A DNA stretch of 12,872 bases, from the NCBI GenBank assembly GCA_020697515.1, contig JAIXNB010000002.1, forward strand, positions 1-12,872, given 5' to 3'. Below the pieces are notes generated by a model, which was not told the DNA's origin, ran no database searches, and saw nothing but the letters and a program-made list of their open reading frames with translations. This DNA comes from Nanobdellota archaeon (lineage in GTDB: Archaea > Nanobdellota > Nanobdellia > Nanobdellales > Nanobdellaceae). Made by a program: the position numbers and the translations under genes. Positions 64 through 11,232 of this stretch are shown one piece after another. Position 1 is the stretch's first letter; every line of letters starts with the position of its first letter.

Positions 64-90
64 TATGCCTTATTACAACTGAAAGCCATG

Positions 91-117
91 CCTTTTAGGG
101 CGGGGAGGAGGTCAGAT
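91..117. repeat. GC-rich 27-mer ccttttagggcggggaggaggtcagat, an inverted copy of 7898-7922.
   Basis: The reverse complement of 7898-7922 is cctttaggacggggaggagtcagat. Aligned to 91-117 it gives 24 identical positions, 1 substitution and 2 single-nt indels. A shared 10-mer cggggaggag in a ~30% GC window is very unlikely by chance. Weaker similarity continues about 12 nt further (tcctctcaa vs tcatcttaa). Confidence 0.75.
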
Positions 118-293
118 TCCTCTCAATTAGTTTAGTATAGTGTATTTGAATATATAATACTTTTTTATTCAACATAATTTAGAGTAAGCAATCTAAATAG
201 TTATGTTTTAGACTTTCAACTAGCAAGTTTATTTAGTTAATATCTCCTGTATGTGGTTTCTTTCTATAATATTGGTTTTAATTTTTCAATAAT

Positions 294-319
294 CCCGATA
301 ATAGCTATCATTAATCGGG
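294..319. promoter_or_regulatory. Imperfect palindrome cccgat-N14-atcggg just upstream of the TATA-like block of the CcdA-like gene. It is a possible operator.
   Basis: cccgat (294-299) is the exact reverse complement of atcggg (314-319). A/T-rich TATA-like sequence at 324-346 follows, and the ATG is at 363. There is no other support. Confidence 0.2.
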
Positions 320-362
320 TGTCAATAAAAATTATAATTTTTATTTGTATTATTGCGTTAAT

Positions 363-1076
363 ATGGATCCGAGTATAATAACTAATATAACCAATAATAT
401 TATAATAACCCATGTAACTAATAATACGATTATTGCCACAACTTTATTAGCTATTACAGATTCTATAAACCCATGTACACTAGCAGTTCAATTAGCATTA
501 TTAGCTAGTCTGCTTACTGCAAAAGGGAGGAGATCAGTTCTGCTTGGAGGAATACTATTTTCTATAACAATTTATATAATGTATACTCTGTATGGTCTTG
601 GTATTTTAAAGGTTATATATACACTCGGCATAGATCACTTATTAAGATATATCCTAAAAGGACTTTTAATAGTGTTAGCTTCTCTAGAAATACTAGCATA
701 TTTTCATTATAGGCCAGGTATGGTATCTCTAGAAATGCCGCTTAGACTAAGGCCCATCGCTAGAAAAATCTTATCTTCAGTAAATAACCCACTCACAGTT
801 CTTCCGGCTGCAGTATTATGTTCTGTGCTACTACTTCCATGTACTTCTGGACCATATTTGGCTATGCTCATGATGATAGGAACCATGGAACAATATAAAC
901 AATTACTATGGATACTATATTATAACATTTGGTTTATTCTACCAATGATATTGATAACTCTATTAGTTTACTTCGGATTAAAACCCCAAAAAGTTACAGA
1001 ATGGAGGAAAAAACATATTAAAGAATTACATCTTATAGCCGGCTTACTGTTGTTATTAGTATTCTTCATGGTATGA
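363..1076 (+). CDS. CcdA/DsbD-family integral membrane thiol-disulfide electron transporter (cytochrome c biogenesis protein transmembrane region family).
   Basis: It is a polytopic hydrophobic protein with the two family-typical membrane-embedded cysteines: INPC (Cys codon 474-476) and LLLPCTSGP. It overlaps by 4 nt (ATGA) with a downstream CPHC thioredoxin-fold gene. I start it at the first ATG (363); the track starts it at TTG 345. Confidence 0.65.
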   Translation: MDPSIITNITNNIIITHVTNNTIIATTLLAITDSINPCTLAVQLALLASLLTAKGRRSVLLGGILFSITIYIMYTLYGLGILKVIYTLGIDHLLRYILKGLLIVLASLEILAYFHYRPGMVSLEMPLRLRPIARKILSSVNNPLTVLPAAVLCSVLLLPCTSGPYLAMLMMIGTMEQYKQLLWILYYNIWFILPMILITLLVYFGLKPQKVTEWRKKHIKELHLIAGLLLLLVFFMV

Positions 1077-1636
1077 ACGCTAAACAAATTATTGGAATAG
1101 GACTATTAGCTCTATTAGGTTTACTCTTAGGATATCTATATATCTCTAACATTAATAACCTTACAATTGAGCACAAAATATCTCTATCTAACAAAAGCTC
1201 CATTATCTATATAGTTTATTCCCCTACATGTCCACACTGTGAACATCTTTTAGAATATATATCCAACATTGAAACAAAGTATCCTAATGTAACATTTCTT
1301 AAAACTACTAATGCTAAAGAGATGAATGAATGTTTAAAAGAACATAATATTTCTTGGAATTTTGGAGTTCCATTAGTTGTAGCTTTTACAAAAAATAAAA
1401 CGTATGTTATTGAGGGGTATCCTGATAAATATCAAGATATTAATGGATATTTTCTTGGAGAGAATTTTGAAAGGAATGCGTGTGAACGATCCAACGGAAC
1501 AGCATTCTACAAAGATGGAAAGTATTTATTTTGCATATTCTCTAACGGGAGGATACTAGGAAATAAATATGCTATAGAATACTTAGCAGAGATATGTTCT
1601 AAAGAAAGTTGCATTCCCAAATGTAACCTTTCATAG
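1073..1636 (+). CDS. Membrane-anchored thioredoxin-fold thiol:disulfide oxidoreductase (DsbA-like CPHC active site) with a Cys-rich C-terminal extension.
   Basis: It has an N-terminal signal-anchor helix (IIGIGLLALLGLLLGYLYI). The CPHC motif lies at 1229-1240 in the context VYSPTCPHCEHL. A downstream GVP motif is consistent with the thioredoxin cis-Pro loop. The start ATGA overlaps the stop of the CcdA-like gene. Confidence 0.7.
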   Translation: MNAKQIIGIGLLALLGLLLGYLYISNINNLTIEHKISLSNKSSIIYIVYSPTCPHCEHLLEYISNIETKYPNVTFLKTTNAKEMNECLKEHNISWNFGVPLVVAFTKNKTYVIEGYPDKYQDINGYFLGENFERNACERSNGTAFYKDGKYLFCIFSNGRILGNKYAIEYLAEICSKESCIPKCNLS

Positions 1637-2416
1637 TTTTTTACTCTTATGTTTCTTTACTATCTCTTCCATTGCTTTTTTAAAATCAATTGCTCTTTGA
1701 AACCACTCCTCAACAACATTTCCGGAAATTTCGGATATCTCTCTATGAGCTAATTTGTGTACAAGTTCATAAATAGCCTTATACCACTTTAAATAAACGT
1801 CCTTAAGCACTTTGCTTTGGACCAAACTTTCTAAATATAAAGGAATCTCATCTGGGCTTGGTGGGTTATGTCCTAGAGACATTAACATATAGTGAGCAGA
1901 ATCTACGAATATCCAATAAACCATTTCGAGAGACTTTACAAGGTGATAATAATACATATTAATGTGACTCGGTATTCTACTTTTAATAACTATTATAGCT
2001 TCTTCAGATGGTCTGATTTTTCCTTGCATAAGCATCTTTTTAAGGGCAGCAAACATACCAAAACTGTCTAAAACTGGTATCCCATATCTTAATATATTTA
2101 TTGCTAAGGGGTCTCCAACCTTTACCATTTCCCAAAAGACCGATAAAGATATTGTATTAGCATGTATCTTTTTGAATTTATCTTTATTTAGGATTTCGGC
2201 TAATGTCTTATAGTAATACGCTTTTACAACGTCGTCCCATATATTGTAAATATCATCTACGATTATTAATACATCTACATCTGATTTATTTGTGTGTGTT
2301 TTTTTAGCATGAGATCCAAACAAAGCTACTACTCTAATTAACCCATCAAATTTCTCAACTAATTTTTTTGAAAAATCCAAGACAGTATTGTACGATCCAT
2401 TGTCAACGTCTACCAT
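1631..2416 (-). CDS. Pol-beta-superfamily nucleotidyltransferase domain protein with a C-terminal all-helical (KNTase-C/HEPN-like) domain. Its substrate is unknown.
   Basis: The N-terminal motif LFGSHAKKTHTNKSDVDVLIIVDD matches the G-S-x(9-13)-D-x-D minimal NTase signature. The C-terminal ~150 aa look helical, and no R-x(4-6)-H HEPN nuclease motif is present. It lies 32 nt downstream of pheS on the same strand. Confidence 0.6.
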   Translation of the reverse strand: MVDVDNGSYNTVLDFSKKLVEKFDGLIRVVALFGSHAKKTHTNKSDVDVLIIVDDIYNIWDDVVKAYYYKTLAEILNKDKFKKIHANTISLSVFWEMVKVGDPLAINILRYGIPVLDSFGMFAALKKMLMQGKIRPSEEAIIVIKSRIPSHINMYYYHLVKSLEMVYWIFVDSAHYMLMSLGHNPPSPDEIPLYLESLVQSKVLKDVYLKWYKAIYELVHKLAHREISEISGNVVEEWFQRAIDFKKAMEEIVKKHKSKKL

Positions 2417-2448
2417 TAAGATATTAAGGTTGTGACAAAAATAAATAC

Positions 2449-3864
2449 CTATTTCATGAGCTTATATAAATTTCTAGAATGTAAATCTCTTATATCATCT
2501 ATTCCTAAGCTGATCATAGCTAATCTGTCTATTCCTAACCCCCATGCAATCACGGGGATATTTATTCCAAAAGGTTCTAGCAACTCTTCCCTAAATATTC
2601 CAGCACCTCCAACCTCTATCCATCCTAATTTGGGATGCTTGGCATAAGCTTCTACAGACGGCTCAGTGAATGGGAAATAGGCCGGATAGAATTTTACATC
2701 TTCTGCTCCAACTATATTTGTAATTAACTCTTTTAGTATCCCCAATAAATCCCTGAAAGATAGTCCCTCATCCAATACTATTCCTTCCAGTTGACTAAAC
2801 TCTATGAAGTGAGTTTTATCAATCGTATCATGCCTAAAAACTTTTTCTATCAAGAAATATCTCCCCGGGATTTTAACTTTCTGAAGAGTTCTAGCAGATA
2901 TGGCAGTTACATGAGATATTAACATAGGTATTCTAGGTAACTTTTCATCCCACTTTCCAAATACTCTCATATGTTGTCTTTTAACGCCCTCGTATAACTT
3001 TTCATCGAAATCTTTTAACTCTCCCTCTAGTACAAATATATCTGTAAACGACATTTCTCCTGAAGGATGGTCTTGAGGAACAAACAAAGCTTCGAAGTTC
3101 CAGAAATGAGAGATGATCATAGAGTAGTCTTCCATTTCCTGAAAGCCCATTGATATCAACTCTCTTCTTATATCGTCTAGAAATCTTAGATATGGGTGCT
3201 TTTTACCAGCTCTTGCTGGATTTACTGGAATGTTGATCTCATATTCCTTAAAAGGATACTTCTCCCACAATCTTTCGTTGAACACTCTTTTATCATACTT
3301 TACTATTACATTTTCATCTCTTAGTTGTTTTTTTATCTCTAAACCTTTTTCTGTTAGCTTTACAAAAAATCTTTTTTGCTTTACAATTTCAATTATTTTC
3401 TTTCTTTTGAGCAGATCCTTTACCTCTCCTAATTCTACACCACCTCTAGCTATCTTCTCCAGCAGTTCTTGTTCAGGTAGAGGAACCTTCTTCAGCAACT
3501 TTATAACCCCATTTTCTATCTTTATTGCCCCCTTCTTTTTGAGAACACCTATTGCAGTTTGAATTTCAGACTTATCAAAATACTGTTGAAGATCTCGTAC
3601 GTTTATTTCTTTTTTCTGATCTAGTAGTTCAAGTAGCCTCTTTTCAGGTAATCCTATCTCCAGGTACTTTTTGCCTAACTCTGTTAGTTTTATTCGAGTA
3701 ACTTCCTCCTCCCTAATGTCTACAAGCCCTTTTAGTTTTAGAAAACCTACAGTTCTCAAGACTTGAAAATATTCTAATCCTAGTTTGTTGGCTATATCAT
3801 CCACAGACTTTTCTGTAGTATCAAGGCATTTTAATACCTTTATTTCCAAACCAGAGAGCTCCAT
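2449..3864 (-). CDS. pheS: Phenylalanyl-tRNA synthetase alpha subunit, archaeal/eukaryal type.
   Basis: Class II motifs are present: FRHDTIDKTHFIEFSQLEGIV (motif 2) and GAGIFREELLEPFGI...AWGLGIDRLAM (motif 3). It has a long N-terminal winged-helix-like region. It starts 2 nt after the pheT stop. Confidence 0.93.
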   Translation of the reverse strand: MELSGLEIKVLKCLDTTEKSVDDIANKLGLEYFQVLRTVGFLKLKGLVDIREEEVTRIKLTELGKKYLEIGLPEKRLLELLDQKKEINVRDLQQYFDKSEIQTAIGVLKKKGAIKIENGVIKLLKKVPLPEQELLEKIARGGVELGEVKDLLKRKKIIEIVKQKRFFVKLTEKGLEIKKQLRDENVIVKYDKRVFNERLWEKYPFKEYEINIPVNPARAGKKHPYLRFLDDIRRELISMGFQEMEDYSMIISHFWNFEALFVPQDHPSGEMSFTDIFVLEGELKDFDEKLYEGVKRQHMRVFGKWDEKLPRIPMLISHVTAISARTLQKVKIPGRYFLIEKVFRHDTIDKTHFIEFSQLEGIVLDEGLSFRDLLGILKELITNIVGAEDVKFYPAYFPFTEPSVEAYAKHPKLGWIEVGGAGIFREELLEPFGINIPVIAWGLGIDRLAMISLGIDDIRDLHSRNLYKLMK

Positions 3865-3866
3865 TT

Positions 3867-5516
3867 TTATGATAACTTTAGTAGAGTTGATATGCTTATC
3901 TCAAAGCAAACCATTGGTAAATCAATATCTAATTTATCTAAAATTGCAGGATGTATCTCTGCAATCCATCCGGCATCTACACCATCTATTAATATCCTTC
4001 CAGATCTTCCAGGTATCCCAAATTTTATATCAGTCTTTTGAAGAGAGTACTTCTTATGGATCTCTACAAACAGTCTTTCCAATTTTTCTTTAGCTAAATT
4101 AAATGAAACCTCTGAATCCAAATACGTATAAAATAACTTCCATTCTTCTATTCTCCTTAAGTTTCTTTTAATTGCAGTAATTCCAACCTCAAAAAATTCT
4201 GCAGGCAAGGGGATACCTTTATTGTTGGCTAATATCTGTAAGAATGAGGCTAGTAGGGTTGGTCGAACAACATTATGCTGGGTAGATACAGGATTTAACA
4301 ATTCTATAAGATACTTTTTGTCATACAGAGAACCTGCAACATCTTTACTAACTAAAACGGGGGTATAAAGTTCTATTGCACGCATTCCCACCATTATCTC
4401 TCTTATTCTGTCTATTAATAATCTTCTTTTTGTAAGACCACCCTTTGTGTATATACTGGGTGTTTTAGGTTGTATTTTGTTATAACCGTAAGCTATAAGA
4501 ACCTCTTCGGCAACGTCTTGAGCAGAAATAATATCGTTTCTATAGTTTAGATATTTTATAGTTATCTCATTATCCTTTATTTCTGCAGAAAGTCTTCTTT
4601 TCTTTAGTAAATCTACTATACAACTATCTTTTAGATCCATACCTATTATTCGTTTAATTTTGTTATAACTTGTAGAAAGTTTTCTTTCTTCTATCACCGG
4701 AGTTTCTATTACATCATTGGAATATTCTATTGTTACACTATATACTTCTCCACCACGGTCAGCTAAAGCCAAAACTATTGAATTTAGGGCAATAGATACA
4801 GATTCGAGATCTGTACCAGTCACATCTATAAAAATATTTCTTGTGTTTTCAGAAATCTTCCCGATAGTATTTGAATTTATAATTGGAGGGAAGGATATAA
4901 CTTCACCCTTACTATCTATCAATAAAGGGTACTTATCCATGCCTTCAAGTAGATGTTTATATTTCCTACCGGTTTCTGTTTTGTCTAAGACCTCTCGTAA
5001 TGTCATTTCGGAAGATTCATACAAAGGTGTAAATTTAACAGAATCAGGATCTACTGCCTTATAGTAGACCGGAAACTTTATTAAATCAAGATTGTGGGTA
5101 CCGATAGCCACCTTTCTTCTTTTTCTTCCAAAAGTACTCATTATCTTTTCTTGTAACTGTATTAGACTTGAAAACCCATGTTTCCCAAGCTTGATATTTT
5201 TAACAACTGCTGCTGCAACATAAGGTCTTATTTCTTGGACATTTGGATCGACGATTAATGTGTAATCTCCTTTGTTAATATGATAAGATGGGAGACCAGT
5301 CTCTATCCCTAGGATTCCTTTTAGTTCTCTTACAATCCCTTCCACAGACCATAAATCCGGCCTATTAGTATCTTTAACTTCTATCTTTATTATATCCCCC
5401 AAGACCTCATCTACCTCCCCCTTTATATGAAGAATAAGGTTTTCTAGATCCTCGATAGTTATCTCTTTACCCAATAACCTTGTTAAGTCTTTATGGGAAA
5501 CTTCTATAGTTGGCAT
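3867..5516 (-). CDS. pheT: Phenylalanyl-tRNA synthetase beta subunit, archaeal type.
   Basis: The N-terminus MPTIEVSHKDLTRLLGK... and an overall length of 549 aa are typical of archaeal PheT (B3/4 and B5 domains). It lies directly upstream of pheS. Confidence 0.92.
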   Translation of the reverse strand: MPTIEVSHKDLTRLLGKEITIEDLENLILHIKGEVDEVLGDIIKIEVKDTNRPDLWSVEGIVRELKGILGIETGLPSYHINKGDYTLIVDPNVQEIRPYVAAAVVKNIKLGKHGFSSLIQLQEKIMSTFGRKRRKVAIGTHNLDLIKFPVYYKAVDPDSVKFTPLYESSEMTLREVLDKTETGRKYKHLLEGMDKYPLLIDSKGEVISFPPIINSNTIGKISENTRNIFIDVTGTDLESVSIALNSIVLALADRGGEVYSVTIEYSNDVIETPVIEERKLSTSYNKIKRIIGMDLKDSCIVDLLKKRRLSAEIKDNEITIKYLNYRNDIISAQDVAEEVLIAYGYNKIQPKTPSIYTKGGLTKRRLLIDRIREIMVGMRAIELYTPVLVSKDVAGSLYDKKYLIELLNPVSTQHNVVRPTLLASFLQILANNKGIPLPAEFFEVGITAIKRNLRRIEEWKLFYTYLDSEVSFNLAKEKLERLFVEIHKKYSLQKTDIKFGIPGRSGRILIDGVDAGWIAEIHPAILDKLDIDLPMVCFEISISTLLKLS

Positions 5517-5558
5517 AGAACTAATAATCGAAAGAAAAAATTAAATACGAAAATAAAT

Positions 5559-5816
5559 CTAGATCTCTATCCCTAGTTTCTTTAAGAGCTCTGGGCCCTT
5601 TTCCCTTACAACTCGTTTAGTGATACCCCTAAATCTTGCGCATGCTGGACAAACATGTATTTTTCTTGGTGCAGTTAGTACTGCTAATGGTTTTTGACTC
5701 TCTGGAATGTCTGGAGATACTAATTTTGGCGAGACGTATAATATTACTGCTTTATCAAGCCGTGTTAGCCTACCACAATAATAACACGTTACATATTGAT
5801 ATCTTTTGTACCTCAT
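5559..5816 (-). CDS. rps26e: Ribosomal protein eS26 (S26e), short form.
   Basis: The Zn-ribbon pattern VTCYYCGRLTRLDKAV ... KIHVCPACARFRGITKRV parallels eukaryotic and crenarchaeal S26e (xRCxNCxRCVPKDKAI ... KLHYCVSCAIHSKVV). It lacks the long basic N-terminal tail. Confidence 0.7.
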   Translation of the reverse strand: MRYKRYQYVTCYYCGRLTRLDKAVILYVSPKLVSPDIPESQKPLAVLTAPRKIHVCPACARFRGITKRVVREKGPELLKKLGIEI

Positions 5817-5905
5817 TTCTCTAATTCAATTTGTAACATATCATTAAGCCTGATCACCATTAAAAACCTAAATAAAAATTATTTAAAAGATTTTTATATA
5901 ATTTA

Positions 5906-5923
5906 GGATATCCTGTGGATATC
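5906..5923. promoter_or_regulatory. Tandem GGATATC heptamers spaced 11 nt apart in the divergent eS26/serS intergenic region. This is a candidate transcription-factor site.
   Basis: ggatatc occurs at 5906-5912 and 5917-5923. The first copy is part of the perfect palindrome ggatatcc. The pair sits between a TATA-like tttttatata (5891-5900) and the serS TATA-like ttatatataata (5955-5966). Confidence 0.2.
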
Positions 5924-5985
5924 TGGCCCTAAAAATTTAAATAATGAAGATCTGTTATATATAATAGATTATCGGCCTAACTAGC

Positions 5986-7575
5986 ATGATGGGTTTTCCA
6001 ATAGACTTGAATTTGCTGCGAAAGAATCCCAGATTATTTAAGGAGAGTATTAAAAAGAGAGGAGGGGATCCAAGTGTAATTGACAAGGCATTGGAATTAG
6101 ATAAAAGAAGACTACAATTACAAAGAGAACTAGATAGATTAAGACATAAGAAAAACATATATGCAAGGCTTTTTGGGTTTACAAAACAATATTTGTCCGG
6201 AAAACTAGATGAACAAGTAGTTTTATCTAAACTCAGAGAAGTTGGGATAGAAATCGAAAAAGTAGATGAGAGTATACTAAATAAAATTAAAAAGGAAGTT
6301 ACTAAAATAGACGAAGATATCAAAAAGACTGAAATGGTCTATAAAGATACTTTAAATAATCTAATTAAGTTATTATGGAACCTTCCAAACCTTGTTGCGG
6401 AAGATGTACCTGTTGGAAGTGAAGAAAAAAATATGCCTATAAGATTTTGGGGAATTCCAAAAGTTTATAAGCGGTATATTGAAGCTTTTAGGGAACAGGC
6501 TGAAAGATGGGGTTGGATAATTGTAGAACTAAAGAAATTCCTAGAGGATAAAAGATTCGAAAAGTATGTCAAAAATAGAGAAAAATTGGAAGAACTATAT
6601 AGAATATTAGAGGGAAAAGAGAGCTTTAAAGAGATTAATTTTAATGAAGTTCTCGATTTTAGATTATTAAATAGAGACAGGATAATCCCCTATACACTAG
6701 TAAATTTTGAACCAAAACATCATTATGATTTAATAAAAGATTTTGCTATTGCGGACACTGATAAAGCCGGTATAGTAGCAGGATCTAGGTTTTATTTTGA
6801 GTTCAAGGAGCTAGTACTAATGGATTTGGCGTTGTCTATTGAAGGCATAACATTTTTAATTGAAAGAGGATATAAACCCGTAATACCACCCTATATGTTA
6901 AAGAAGAAGGTATTAGATGGAGTAATAACATTAGAAGACTATGAAGATATGATGTACAAAATAGATGGTGAAGATTTATTTTTAATTGGTACTGCAGAAC
7001 ATCCAATAACTGCGTTATATTATAATGAAATATTTAATGAAGGAGATCTACCTTTAAAAATAGTTGGATGGTCTCCATGCTTTAGAAAGGAGGCAGGAGC
7101 ACATGGTAAGGATACTAAAGGAATATTTAGAGTACACCAGTTTCATAAGGTAGAACAATATATATTCTGTAAGCCAGAAGATTCTGAAAAACTACATGAA
7201 GAATTAATAAGAAATGCTGAGGAGTTCTTGCAGAGATTAAATATTCCATATAGGGTAGTTTTAATTGCTAGTAAAGATATGGGTAAAAGAAATTATAAGC
7301 AATATGATATTGAAGGGTGGTTTCCCGGACAAGGTAAATATAGGGAATTAGTTTCAGGCAGTAATGTAACTGATTGGCAGTCTAGAAGATGTAATATTAG
7401 ATATAGAAAAAAAGATAATAAATTAGATTTCGTACATACTTTAAATTGTACTCTTGTAGCAGTACAGAGGACTCTTTGTGCAATAATGGAAAACTTTTAT
7501 GATCAAAAAAGAGATGCGATAACTGTACCAAAGCTTTTAAGAAAATATATACCAAATAACACTATAGTTCGATGA
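5986..7575 (+). CDS. serS: Seryl-tRNA synthetase (common bacterial/archaeal type), unusually long at 529 aa.
   Basis: The N-terminal coiled-coil arm (IDLNLLRKNPRLFKESIKKRG...) is present, as are motif 2 (SPCFRKEAGAHGKDTKGIFRVHQFHKVEQ), TDWQSRR and motif 3 (HTLNCTLVAVQRTLCAIMENF). TATA-like sequence at 5955-5966, about 25-30 nt before the ATG, suggests a leaderless mRNA. Confidence 0.93.
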   Translation: MMGFPIDLNLLRKNPRLFKESIKKRGGDPSVIDKALELDKRRLQLQRELDRLRHKKNIYARLFGFTKQYLSGKLDEQVVLSKLREVGIEIEKVDESILNKIKKEVTKIDEDIKKTEMVYKDTLNNLIKLLWNLPNLVAEDVPVGSEEKNMPIRFWGIPKVYKRYIEAFREQAERWGWIIVELKKFLEDKRFEKYVKNREKLEELYRILEGKESFKEINFNEVLDFRLLNRDRIIPYTLVNFEPKHHYDLIKDFAIADTDKAGIVAGSRFYFEFKELVLMDLALSIEGITFLIERGYKPVIPPYMLKKKVLDGVITLEDYEDMMYKIDGEDLFLIGTAEHPITALYYNEIFNEGDLPLKIVGWSPCFRKEAGAHGKDTKGIFRVHQFHKVEQYIFCKPEDSEKLHEELIRNAEEFLQRLNIPYRVVLIASKDMGKRNYKQYDIEGWFPGQGKYRELVSGSNVTDWQSRRCNIRYRKKDNKLDFVHTLNCTLVAVQRTLCAIMENFYDQKRDAITVPKLLRKYIPNNTIVR

Positions 7576-7614
7576 TTTCTTTTCATCTTATTTTTAATTT
7601 CAAATTAAAATGTT

Positions 7615-7671
7615 ACCCGCTGGGGTGGTCGGTTGTCATTTATTCCAACCGACCGGTTTGGGCGGGCTTTT
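7615..7671 (+). ncRNA. GC-rich extended hairpin (~52 nt) followed by CTTTT. It is either a small structured RNA of unknown class or a 3' hairpin of the serS transcript.
   Basis: ggtcggttg (7627-7635) pairs perfectly with caaccgacc (7646-7654), giving 9 bp. cccgc (7616-7620) pairs perfectly with gcggg (7662-7666). The segment between the two stems can close with G-U pairs. The hairpin has no internal T4 and is followed by T4 at 7668-7671. The A/T block tttttaattt (7591-7600) lies ~20-25 nt upstream. The strand call rests only on the T-run. Confidence 0.4.
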
Positions 7672-7756
7672 AAAATATTTTAACATAACGTATAAGTTTG
7701 TTACGTAAATATTATCGATTGAGAGCCAGAAACATATAACGTGTTCTTTTGCATCA

Positions 7757-7772
7757 TTTAAATATTTTTATA
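7757..7772 (+). promoter_or_regulatory. TATA-like box tttaaatatttttata, positioned ~25 nt upstream of the start of the GC-rich island.
   Basis: tttttata at 7765-7772 lies ~25 nt before GAAGCCCCC at 7793. The same spacing is seen before several ATGs in this window. A/T-rich context makes this weak on its own. Confidence 0.3.
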
Positions 7773-7897
7773 GTGCTTTGCTAGATAGCAATGAAGCCCC
7801 CTCAAACCTTTAACCCTCTGTCCAATATGTGGGAAAAATAAGCTCACCTGTTTATGGAAATGATAAAAGATATGATTTACACCAGGTTAAGATGATT

Positions 7898-7922
7898 ATC
7901 TGACTCCTCCCCGTCCTAAAGG
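7898..7922. repeat. GC-rich 25-mer atctgactcctccccgtcctaaagg, an inverted copy of 91-117. It lies at the 5' edge of the structured RNA core.
   Basis: See the entry for 91-117. This copy includes the first hairpin (cgtcc-taaa-ggacg) of the RNA core. Confidence 0.75.
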
Positions 7923-8089
7923 ACGAGGGTTCCCCATAGGGGAACCACCATCGCACCCGTCTCACGACGGGGTCATCGGCTCGGTTGGTGTCATTGAGCT
8001 GGGTCAGAGCAGCCCTCTGTTATCATTATTGCAAGAAAAGGAAAAGAAATCTACTATCTGCCATGAAGGGTGAGGCTTCACGGTTGTGA

Positions 8090-8320: not shown

Positions 8321-9547
8321 CTATGTATCTGTTATCTCGATTCCTTCTGGTCTCCAATAAGGATCTATAGTATTTATACCCTTCACACTTTTTTTAAACC
8401 ACAAAATACCCGTCCAGGAAATCATTGCTCCATTATCATTAGCAAAATCTAAAGGCACTGTTCCAAATTTTATTTTCCTCTCTTCACACATTGATTTTAG
8501 CATACTTTGTAATCTTCTATTAGCAGCGACTCCTCCAGTTAATCCTACCTCTTTCTTATTCAAATGGGCTACTGCTCTCTCTACAATTTCTGTTAACATT
8601 GCAAATATGTGCTCTTGGATGGAGTAGGATAAGTCTTCTAGAGAAATATTTCTATCTCTATCTAACAGATTCTTGATATAAGTATAGATCCCTCCAAGAT
8701 GAATATCCATTCCTTTGACTGTATAGGGGAGCTCTATTAACTTTTTTCCCTTTTCTGCCAGCTTTTCGATTTTCGGACCAGCGGGAAATCCCAAACTTAG
8801 CAACCTTCCTATTTTGTCCAGAAAATTTCCTACTCCTATATCTAAGGTCTCCCCAAATACCCTGTATCTACCTCCTTCATAGGCCAATACCATCGTATTT
8901 GCTCCAGATACCAGTAATATCACAGGATCTTTAAAGTTGTTATATAGTTTAACAATTTCTATATGAGCTATTAGATGATTAACTCCAATTATTTTTATAT
9001 TTAAAGTATTTGATAATTCCTTTGCCAAAAAAGCACCCTGAACTAGTGTTGGATACAATCCGGGTCCCGCTGAGTATGATATTAGGTTTATTTTTCTTTC
9101 AAAGTTATTTAAATCTCTTTTAATTCTATTAAAAATTTTATTTAGCTTTTTTTCAATTTCTTCATCTGTAGATTTTATTTTTTGATCTTCCACCCAAACT
9201 TCTACTCCATCATTCAGAATTAGATATCTATACCTATTCCATGGTTCCTCGTGAAATCTCTCAAAAACTGTAAATTTATTTTCTAAATATTTCTTTAATT
9301 CATATAAAACATCAACAAAACAAAGTTTATCACCAACTTTTATTTTTACAAATCCAGCATTATTTAACGCTTTTTTTAAGACGTTAATAGCTTCTTTAGA
9401 ATGTAATTCAGCGGCTTCTCTAGGATGCACTCCTCCTTTCTCAGTTTTGAAAATAACTCTAGTGTTTGAATATATTTTACCTCTTTCGTCAACAATTCCT
9501 ATAGAAAACGTATGTGCTGTACATTCTATACCTAGTGAGATTATCAT
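8321..9547 (-). CDS. kae1: Kae1 (tRNA N6-threonylcarbamoyladenosine transferase, KEOPS catalytic subunit) carrying an ~85-aa internal insertion.
   Basis: Family motifs are present: MIISLGIECTAHTFSIGIV, GGVHPREAAELH, SAGPGL, GVNHLIAHIE (the HxxxH metal site), YRVFGETLDIGVGNFLDK, LPYTVKGMD, TGGVAANRRL and NDNGAMI. It is 408 aa against the usual ~325-340 aa. Confidence 0.9.
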   Translation of the reverse strand: MIISLGIECTAHTFSIGIVDERGKIYSNTRVIFKTEKGGVHPREAAELHSKEAINVLKKALNNAGFVKIKVGDKLCFVDVLYELKKYLENKFTVFERFHEEPWNRYRYLILNDGVEVWVEDQKIKSTDEEIEKKLNKIFNRIKRDLNNFERKINLISYSAGPGLYPTLVQGAFLAKELSNTLNIKIIGVNHLIAHIEIVKLYNNFKDPVILLVSGANTMVLAYEGGRYRVFGETLDIGVGNFLDKIGRLLSLGFPAGPKIEKLAEKGKKLIELPYTVKGMDIHLGGIYTYIKNLLDRDRNISLEDLSYSIQEHIFAMLTEIVERAVAHLNKKEVGLTGGVAANRRLQSMLKSMCEERKIKFGTVPLDFANDNGAMISWTGILWFKKSVKGINTIDPYWRPEGIEITDT

Positions 9548-9746
9548 AAAGAATATTCACAGTTAAATTTTTAGTATAGTTTTTATGTAACATGATAAGA
9601 AGGATGCGCTACTATTTTAGTGGAGGTAGCCTGATAACCTATACCCAAATATATTTCTATGATCTCTCCCCACTTTAGGGAATAGGATTAAAACGATTAA
9701 AACATTGATGTTATAATTTAATTTTTAATTATAATTTTGATTAAAT

Positions 9747-10671: not shown

Positions 10672-11232
10672 ATGATTAAAATTACAGAAGGCTGGCATGC
10701 AGAAATATTCCTAACGAAAAGAGGGACTATTATAAAAAAGTTTAAACCAGGATTAGAAAAGAACTTTTATAAAGAATGTTATTTTTTGAAGAAACTGCAA
10801 AATTACAATTTCGTACCCCGTCTATTGAGGTGCTATCCTAAAAGTTTGGAGGTAGAGATGGAATACATAGAAGGTACAGCATTTGGGAAATTAATAAGAT
10901 TAAGAGATATCTACAGTATAAGACAGATAATTCTAAAAATACTAGACATACTATATCTACTAGATATCAGTAATATACAAAAAGAGGAATTAAACAGACC
11001 TCATAAACATATAATAATTAATGGGGAACGAATTGTTTTGATAGATTGGGAAAGAGCAAAGGAGACTAATAAACCTTCAAATATAACGCAGTTTATATCT
11101 TTTTTGGTAAATTGTAGGGATCTTAATAAAATGGGTATACCTAAGAGTAGAGAATCTATTTTAGAACTATCCAGAAACTACAAAATAAGTTACTCCAGGA
11201 AGATTTTAGGCAAAATAAAATCGGTAGTTTGA
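10672..11232 (+). CDS. Small atypical protein-kinase-fold protein, Bud32/RIO-like (possible KEOPS Bud32 equivalent), with a divergent catalytic loop.
   Basis: EGWHAEIF resembles the Bud32 GAEA-x-I-Y/F P-loop. IIKKF contains the lysine, and EMEYIEG is the hinge. The HxDLxxxN position reads QKEELNRPHKH, and DFG is replaced by DWE. It is the third gene in the endA operon and lies close to kae1. Confidence 0.55.
   Translation: MIKITEGWHAEIFLTKRGTIIKKFKPGLEKNFYKECYFLKKLQNYNFVPRLLRCYPKSLEVEMEYIEGTAFGKLIRLRDIYSIRQIILKILDILYLLDISNIQKEELNRPHKHIIINGERIVLIDWERAKETNKPSNITQFISFLVNCRDLNKMGIPKSRESILELSRNYKISYSRKILGKIKSVV

Follow-up and report, generated by a model that had tools for sequence, protein, structure and literature searches.

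The window analysed here is a stretch of 12,872 nucleotides from a hydrothermal-vent metagenome-assembled genome (MAG) named Candidatus Nanopusillus sp., of the Nanoarchaeota. Nanopusillus is an obligate ectosymbiont with a tiny genome. The window begins with the coding end of an RNA methyltransferase gene, which the original prediction for this DNA had recognised as such and which is of the RsmF type. Further on there are convergent genes for SerRS and Kae1 and, again as predicted, genes for splicing-endonuclease subunits. The subject of this text is a pair of GC-rich motifs, one shortly after RsmF and one between SerRS and Kae1, and their relation to IS200/IS605 insertion sequences (IS) and to the HgcC family of RNAs.

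Read directly, the first motif (91-117, locus 1) is ccttttagggcggggaggaggtcagat. The second, read as the reverse complement of 7898-7922, is cctttaggacggggaggagtcagat. The two had been reported as an inverted match with one substitution (G/A) and two 1-nt indels, and this is correct. A repeat search returns the same pair (I10) as 83-110 against 7904-7931, over 28 nt with 79% complementarity.

Two GC-rich patches in an AT-rich genome could be alike by chance. Short GC-rich hairpins are able to recur randomly, and the fold of the 43-nt element at locus 1 is by itself unremarkable (z -0.58). However, shuffled sequence is expected to hold the 16-nt core GGGGAGGAGGTCAGAT 0.04 times when up to 3 mismatches are allowed, and the pair, as two or more matches to this core, was reproduced in 0 of 200 shuffles. 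Profiles built from other genomes only give locus 1 52.4 bits (E 5.6e-15, all 43 positions, from 19 such elements) and the second locus 28 bits (E 2.6e-7). More than 190 homologous copies were recovered elsewhere. Because of the shuffles, the widespread copies and the profile E-values, the chance reading is already refuted and its probability is negligible; the inverted match is real.

A weaker third resemblance, suggested at 9658-9686, scores 4.6 bits (E 5.6) with the right-end and mini-element profiles, which is noise. The core also recurs with 3 mismatches at 524-539 (AGGGAGGAGATCAGTT), within a membrane-protein open reading frame (ORF) of 243 amino acids (aa). This match is without profile support and is treated as chance.

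The related sequence is longer than was first given. At locus 1 it runs from 73 to 115, and at the other site from 7900 to 8085. What both loci have in common is a hairpin, CCTCGCCC-TTTA-GGGCGGGG, followed by the tail AGGAGGTCAG. This module is found far outside the window. When one genome of each archaeal and bacterial species is scanned with the pattern TTTAGGNCGGGGAGGAG(N)TCAG, at least 119 stretches match, all of them archaeal and nearly all from thermophile lineages, with several genomes holding multiple copies. Among the matches listed are Thermoprotei (Sulfolobales, Desulfurococcales and Thermoproteales), Archaeoglobi, Thermococci, Methanomethylicota, Marsarchaeota, Bathyarchaeota and Thermoplasmata. 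A longer pattern, used on metagenomes, adds 73 further copies; a separate metagenome scan for the variant of this lineage, GAAAGCCAYGCCTTTTAGGGCGGGGAGGAGG, gives 0 matches. In every copy the similarity halts exactly after ...GGTCAG and the downstream sequence is unrelated, which means that the module is the terminus of an element.

The genes next to the module tell which element this is. Of the 183 distinct copies, 47 are directly preceded on their own strand by the end of a TnpB-like ORF, and example upstream ORFs match OrfB_IS605 and Cas12f1-like_TNB in Pfam. In several copies the tnpB stop codon is the TAG of the hairpin loop. Two full elements (L016 and L029) have TTACAACTGAAAGCC and a very similar hairpin ~1.77 kb upstream of the right hairpin, and between the hairpins there is a Y1_Tnp ORF (E 1e-37 and 8e-39), then tnpB. 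The autonomous layout is TTAC, left-end hairpin, tnpA (Y1 HUH transposase), tnpB (RNA-guided nuclease), and a right-end hairpin that closes with ...GGAGGAGGTCAG.

Independent annotation agrees with this. In Sulfolobus monocaudavirus SMV1 the motif falls within 1 nt of the right boundary of an annotated 'IS element-IS200-605', a feature with both IS200 OrfA and IS605 OrfB. A plasmid of Saccharolobus solfataricus has the motif under a TnpB gene. Given the TnpB ORFs upstream, the full tnpA-tnpB elements and these annotations, the module is, by sequence comparison, the right end of an IS200/IS605 lineage that is widespread in thermophilic archaea. The third reading offered by the original prediction, two copies of one dispersed element on opposite strands, has therefore held up.

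The ends of the family have recurrent tetranucleotides. TTAC adjoins 44 of 50 left ends in subfamilies other than B, and TCAC adjoins all seven subfamily-B copies that have a left end (7/7). All right ends close with TCAG. In the window, TTAC adjoins locus 1 and TCAC adjoins the HgcC element described below. Elements that consist of a left and a right end without any ORF measure 140-320 nt. The terminal hairpin, compared over 170 copies, is mostly invariant, with an identical 5' arm in 98/170. At its one free position, C·A mismatches are commoner than T-A, and the hairpin alone gives no RNA-type covariation signal.

The left-end tetranucleotide also covaries with the 4 nt just 5' of the left hairpin: TTAC goes with AAAG in subfamilies A and D, and TCAC with GAAG in B (7/7). 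L065 is a counter-example (left ends compared: L007-L213 and window 8071-8089). The pairing recalls the cleavage-site/guide pairing that has reportedly been described for IS608 TnpA.

The second locus contains more than a transposon end. A scan of the window against all of Rfam finds one strong match, HgcC (RF00062), at 8017-7887 on the minus strand. The match covers the full model (positions 1-130) with 83.6 bits, against a gathering score of 50, and an E-value of 3.5e-18. On the plus strand there is no Rfam HgcC match. The motif corresponds to model positions ~85-117, with the last hairpin CCUCGUCC-UUUA-GGACGGGG and the tail AGGAGUCAG; the last 13 positions of the model are unconserved. The original prediction took 7898-7922 for the 5' part of a structured RNA on the plus strand. 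It is instead the 3' end of HgcC on the minus strand.

The HgcC RNA body has a G+C content of 58%, versus 32% for the window, and folds with a minimum free energy (MFE) of -54.7 kcal/mol (z -3.2). Over ~120 nt it shares 82-90% identity with copies from vent and hot-spring contigs and from an Archaeoglobaceae MAG. For 10 subfamily-B sequences, RNAalifold predicts 35 consensus pairs, 6 of which have compensatory changes. The window copy keeps 34 of these 35, and one of the compensatory changes, from C-G to U-A (columns 7/18), is specific to it. The missing pair belongs to the closing helix (columns 28/120) and is lost to a 1-nt deletion in the tail, which is one G short of the otherwise near-invariant AGGAGGTCAG. 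This deletion is present in 4/4 population contigs that cover the tail, and it shortens the spacing between hairpin and terminus from 10 to 9 nt. The 3' tail is predicted to pair with an invariant UGACACC box.

Around this RNA body lies an element of 186 nt, in which a decayed left-end hairpin comes first, then a spacer, then HgcC itself, and last the right-end hairpin with its tail. Its borders come from 11 homologues, in which similarity begins directly after TCAC and ends after TCAG. Against the profile, the left-end remnant (8087 to 8060) is a weak match in the window, with 7.0 bits and E 0.88; in the population variants L001/L004 it reaches 11.6 bits and E 0.03, and it aligns with GGAAGCCTCGCCTTTCAAGGCTGGG of the homologues. 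The element contains no ORF and has no similarity to tnpA or tnpB. A tnpB remnant beside HgcC was considered and rejected: with four TnpB and two TnpA proteins as queries, tblastn was negative for the window and for the other nanoarchaeal loci (~20 kb of this organism).

HgcC was first found in Methanocaldococcus jannaschii. It is a high-GC non-coding RNA whose function was still described as unknown in literature from 2015 and 2017. In Thermococcus kodakarensis, three HgcC RNAs have internal start sites within IS605 OrfB genes, whose direction they share (PMC4247193). It has further been noted that HgcC carries a right-end-like tetraloop motif, and that haloarchaea have RNAs derived from palindrome-associated transposable elements (PATEs) (PMC4615843). 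PATEs are often the source of omega-RNAs, which depend on TnpB supplied from elsewhere (PMC10055086), and archaeal TnpB takes a right-end-derived RNA as its guide.

At the gathering threshold, subfamily B alone scores as HgcC among 19 related loci. The tnpB-linked subfamilies have just the last 35-40 nt in common with HgcC. Conversely, none of the 17 sampled subfamily-B copies has a tnpB beside it. Most subfamily-B relatives do carry a box (CCGAAAYRTTTTTATT) like a transcription factor B recognition element (BRE) and TATA box, ~25 nt before the HgcC start.

Some smaller observations concern the tail and the tandem arrangement of ends. The tail GGAGGAGGUCA (106-115 and 7900-7908 in the window) holds a Shine-Dalgarno-like GGAGGU, and in the mini-element at locus 1 it is predicted to pair with the left-end CUGA. 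A link of this GGAGGU to the ribosome is pure speculation. A K-turn or C/D-box reading of the tail was considered by eye, fitted poorly and was dropped. On a metagenome contig (L142, 1622-1720), a HgcC copy is followed 22 nt on by a partial right-end module of two last hairpins plus tail.

Locus 1 is a different kind of derivative. It starts 10 nt past the RsmF stop codon (61-63), with the RsmF coding end on one side and an AT-rich spacer on the other. An alignment of 40 subfamily-A copies has sharp borders, TTACAA... and ...GGTCAG, with unrelated flanks, and the consensus of the 43-nt elements is TTACAACTGAAAGCCTCGCCCTTTAGGGCGGGGAGGAGGTCAG. The left part of such a mini-element equals the left end of the full tnpA-tnpB elements. 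Some minis have the loop TTTTA, as in left ends, and others TTTA, as in right ends; this difference suggests more than one collapse event. Against the HgcC covariance model, locus 1 scores 19 bits (E 0.94), over the 3' part only, in sense on the plus strand. It is thus not an HgcC gene.

Table 1 Features of the two elements in the window.
Feature	Position	Strand	Basis or remark
Mini-element, subfamily A	73-115	+	Profile match over full length, family alignment
TTAC of mini-element	73-76	+	
Left-end segment AACTGAAAG of mini-element	77-85	+	
Single hairpin of mini-element	5' arm 86-93, loop 94-97, 3' arm 98-105	+	
Right-end tail AGGAGGTCAG of mini-element	106-115	+	
Gene-less PATE-like IS200/IS605 derivative, subfamily B, 186 nt	8085-7900	-	Alignment with 11 homologues
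TCAC tetranucleotide adjoining left end, presumed target or transposon-adjacent motif (TAM)	8089-8086	-	
Left-end remnant AACCGTGAAGCCTCACCCTTCATGGC	8085-8060	-	5' arm and loop recognisable, 3' arm decayed
HgcC-family RNA body, omega-RNA-like scaffold	8017-7900	-	Rfam RF00062
Right-end module	7928-7900	-	Hairpin and tail; includes the sequence originally seen at 7898-7922
Right-end hairpin CCTCGTCC-TTTA-GGACGGGG	7928-7909	-	
Tail AGGAG-TCAG	7908-7900	-	
Flank directly 3' of right end, AUAAUCAUCUUAACCUGGUG	7899-7880	-	Candidate guide if HgcC serves as omega-RNA; from omega-RNA architecture

Within ~15 kb there are three copies, two in the window and one decayed mini-element on L003 (1042 to 1009, minus strand), ~850 nt past the right end of the window, with 18.3 bits and E 2.6e-4. 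This third copy, TTACAACCGAAAACCCCGCTCTTTAATGTGAGGAAAAGGTAGAT, sits ~10 nt beyond the stop codon of a gene for a Hef-like helicase/nuclease. Its G/C positions have drifted to A/T, and the relative L214 has no mini at the same spot.

Two independent assemblies (contigs L129 and L132) start at window position 90, inside the mini-element, as is typical of a repeat that breaks the assembly graph. Another contig, L131 (ena:ERZ27236673:k127_516922), starts with an exact inverted copy of the mini-element over 39 nt (1-39). This copy is fused to the end of the RsmF coding sequence, 55 nt upstream of locus 1 (...CAGTTGTAA directly followed by TAATGATAC...) and supplants the normal sequence upstream of position 18. 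Part of the population may thus carry a second, inverted insertion, or the assembly has produced an artefact. In the first case it could be a sign of ongoing movement. L207 has a clearly artefact-like fold-back at a related hairpin.

The headline of the original prediction was an RNA-RNA duplex between the two loci, in which the edge of a trans-acting small RNA (sRNA) pairs over ~25 bp with the 3' untranslated region (UTR) of the RsmF mRNA. The plus-strand sequences of the two loci are indeed complementary. Locus 1 comes after the RsmF stop but before the first T-run (161-166), so it is probably part of the RsmF 3' UTR. An antisense RNA to one HgcC copy has also been reported in T. kodakarensis (PMC4247193).

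The duplex however needs both loci on the plus strand. HgcC is on the minus strand only, and locus 1 is HgcC-sense on the plus strand, so the minus-strand HgcC RNA would have the same motif sense as the RsmF 3' UTR. Since the same module is present in the same sense on opposite strands, the native transcripts should be homologous, not complementary. Read-through on the plus strand into 7898-7922 is unlikely too, given the T-rich tracts directly after the SerRS stop, as T-runs have a role in archaeal termination. The motif itself is a pan-archaeal transposon end that lies beside unrelated genes, and the nearest relatives have neither element beside RsmF or Kae1. It had been said beforehand that like instead of complementary RNAs, many scattered copies, or absence of the pair from close relatives would speak against pairing. 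The inferred native strands give like RNAs, the copies are many and scattered without partner logic, and the pair is absent from the closest available relatives, none of which keeps both flanking genes of either site. Such an sRNA-mRNA pair is very improbable.

A second suggestion was that the complementary segments join separately encoded RNA pieces through the splicing endonuclease, as with the split tRNAs of Nanoarchaeum equitans. In favour of this, the organism belongs to the Nanoarchaeota, and two subunits like those of the splicing endonuclease are encoded in the window. The leader/trailer pairs of N. equitans are said to be 12-14 nt long and unique per pair, and not a dispersed repeat. 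The module discussed here occurs hundreds of times in archaea outside the Nanoarchaeota. According to ARAGORN the window is free of tRNAs and half-tRNAs. Locus 1 is flanked by the end of the RsmF coding sequence and by AT-rich spacer, and the second locus is wholly explained by the HgcC model on the opposite strand. With both segments in the same sense as well, a split-gene leader and trailer can be set aside as exceedingly improbable. What is left of the likeness is the shared phylum, GC-rich segments that are complementary, and endonuclease genes nearby.

In relatives with an 80-82% identical RsmF, the next gene follows after ~40 nt (18-41 nt across the RsmF and Kae1 cases) or overlaps. In one relative, Kae1 is 72% identical, the EndA/Hef neighbourhood is the same, and 18 nt separate Kae1 from the gene that follows. 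A search of 110 kb of related nanoarchaeal DNA with both profiles found no copy. An exact empty site was not found in these relatives, in which the gene neighbours differ at both sites. Because the nearest relatives are without either element, both insertions are, on this comparison, specific to this lineage.

The reading preferred here, at a probability of roughly 0.88, is that both loci are independent insertions, in opposite orientation, of non-autonomous derivatives of one IS200/IS605 lineage, and that they have no joint function. The shared 25-27 nt is the right-end module of the family, with its subterminal hairpin and the terminal TCAG 10 nt later. The copy at 8085-7900 has lost both genes and kept the right-end-derived structured RNA, HgcC, which would be an omega-RNA-type scaffold. 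The copy at 73-115 is a collapse product, in which the near-identical left and right hairpins merged into one and the two termini were left. The sequence comparisons show what the two elements are, their strand, borders and family, the presence of tnpA and tnpB with the module elsewhere, and the lack of both insertions in the nearest available relatives. Going by published IS200/IS605 biology, such copies would be mobilised by single-strand 'peel and paste' with TnpA in trans, and TnpB in trans would make use of HgcC.

Both copies have an intact right-end hairpin, and the left-end segment is intact in the mini-element and decayed in the HgcC element. Neither encodes TnpA or TnpB, which makes them derivatives of the family and not autonomous members. 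In both, the two ends are joined without a protein gene, as in PATEs. In the predicted empty sites, ...GCCTTATTAC would be followed directly by ATTCCTCTCAATT... at locus 1 (plus strand) and ...CCAAAAAATCAC by ATAATCATCTTAAC... at the HgcC element (minus strand).

Several points weigh against this reading. There is no tnpA or tnpB in the nanoarchaeal sequence searched, ~20 kb of this organism, and a source in trans is presumed. A search for empty-site alleles gave none whose flanks are identical, and the exact borders are those suggested by the family alignments. The left-end hairpin of the HgcC element is weakly recognisable (E 0.88). The window copy is also without the clear CCGAAAYRTTTTTATT box of its relatives, its promoter region having decayed, and the transcription direction of HgcC is that indicated by the model strand and by the promoters of homologues. 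For subfamily B, the link to TnpB comes from the shared right end and from the T. kodakarensis report. The hairpin, finally, is conserved and not covarying, which fits recognition by a protein without proving it.

The orientation of HgcC, its position at the right end and the sharp end of its conservation all agree with an omega-RNA, although no tnpB lies beside it. We infer that HgcC may be a scaffold of the omega-RNA type; its 3' tail would then run into the flanking DNA, and 7899-7880 would be the guide. The nearest relatives of the window elements are in Archaeoglobaceae, and for the mini-element mainly in Thermoprotei. Known nanoarchaeal hosts come from the class Thermoprotei. It is possible, if quite unlikely, that the gene-less and fresh-looking derivatives in Nanopusillus were acquired from, or mobilised by, the machinery of the host or of a co-resident element, and that the orphan HgcC was kept as a guide or regulatory RNA.

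Exaptation is a further reading, in which the elements came in as transposon derivatives and have since been retained for a function in Nanopusillus itself. HgcC would then be a stable sRNA, and the mini-element a hairpin at the 3' end of RsmF that stabilises or terminates the transcript, in the manner of repetitive extragenic palindromic (REP) sequences. The HgcC structure scores in full (83.6 bits) and includes the window-specific C-G to U-A change, while the left end and the promoter region have decayed. It also persists at its high G+C in a streamlined genome, and overexpressed related RNAs improved the growth of Halobacterium (PMC4615843). Minis are always intergenic, with 0/24 inside ORFs.

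Set against this, the orientation of the minis relative to adjacent gene ends has no convincing bias (co-oriented tails in 6 cases, opposite tails in 4, heads in 6), and the sibling on L003 is decaying. The closest relatives lack the elements, so any host function would have to be recent, and the apparent preservation could equally reflect a recent arrival. Such retention for a host function is unlikely. In an Ignisphaera sp. MAG (L117, 7218-7307), a subfamily-A mini lies 46 nt after the stop of an RsmB/F-family methyltransferase gene. A conserved link between minis and such methyltransferases was considered and judged a coincidence: the RsmF genes of the closest nanoarchaeal relatives have no mini, and the genes upstream of other minis are unrelated.

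The preferred reading, independent insertions of non-autonomous derivatives, can be compared with known systems. Like IS608, ISDra2 and the SMV1 copy from the IS605 group, the family has subterminal hairpins at both ends and no terminal inverted repeats, a fixed TTAC or TCAC, presumably the target, at the left end, and a TCAG that closes the right end 10 nt after the hairpin foot. TTAC is reportedly the target of IS608. The difference is that the window copies are without tnpA and tnpB.

Against Rfam HgcC, the window sequence at 8017-7887 matches the model end to end, above the gathering score and with the same stems, and has covariation among close homologues. It differs by its place in a nanoarchaeal MAG, without a transposase gene beside it, and by the 1-nt deletion in its 3' tail. 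With the omega-RNAs of TnpB (also known as reRNAs, from the OMEGA systems) it shares a structured RNA derived from the right end, whose scaffold ends at the transposon boundary and is followed by flank sequence. Unlike those, it has no cognate TnpB nearby, an adjacent tnpB being present in 0/17 subfamily-B copies, and TnpB binding and guide use are predictions here. The characterised archaeal SisTnpB1 differs in its TAM, which is TTTAA.

PATEs and other IS200/IS605 derivatives that resemble miniature inverted-repeat transposable elements (MITEs) have their ends joined without protein genes, are transcribable and possibly yield an omega-RNA. The 186-nt HgcC element fits this description. The 43-nt mini-element departs from it by keeping a single hairpin that is shared by both ends. 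Bacterial REPs and REPINs, with their IS200-like Y1 transposases (RAYT), are likewise short repeats that form hairpins and have kinship with the ends of IS200/IS605; they are dispersed between genes and frequently lie close to the 3' end of a gene. The comparison is no more than an analogy. A RAYT-like gene did not turn up, both IS termini are retained in the minis, and these form no inverted doublets, the two window copies being 7.8 kb apart.

For annotation, this means that the GC-rich 'structured RNA' and the motif in the 3' flank of RsmF, in this AT-rich nanoarchaeal genome, should be labelled transposon-derived. Apt labels are an HgcC/omega-RNA-like element and a 43-nt left-end/right-end mini-element, and not a regulatory RNA pair or split-gene signals. 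HgcC, IS200/IS605 ends, omega-RNAs and PATEs are all already known. Mildly new are the explicit tie of the HgcC 3' module to the right end of a tnpA-tnpB element across many archaeal phyla, the recurrent 43-nt collapse form with a single hairpin, and the presence of such elements in a nanoarchaeal symbiont with no transposase in view. No description of a 43-nt single-hairpin form shared by both ends was found in the literature searched. If mobile, it would rank with the smallest mobile DNAs. That a streamlined symbiont carries IS-derived repeats is also a modest curiosity with regard to gene flow between archaeal symbionts and their neighbours.

The window has some further features of its own. 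Kae1/TsaD (8321-9547, minus strand) measures 408 aa, and its nanoarchaeal homologues ~400 aa. Distant homologues of ~325 aa cover 58-74% of it, which implies a probable lineage-specific insertion of ~75 aa at residues roughly 50-130. The genes for the two splicing-endonuclease subunits separate Kae1 from a Bud32-like ORF (10672-11232).

A long GC-rich hairpin, ACCCGCUGGGGUGGUCGGUUG...CAACCGACCGGUUUGGGCGGG, lies at 7615-7668, 40 nt past the SerRS stop. It may be read on either strand, with an MFE of -28.9 (z -3.8) on the plus strand and -26.8 (z -5.2) on the minus strand, and no Rfam family matches it. Possible identities are an unannotated nanoarchaeal sRNA and a 3'-end structure. The hairpin is kept after SerRS in the relatives L133 and L134, where the changes preserve the outer stem.

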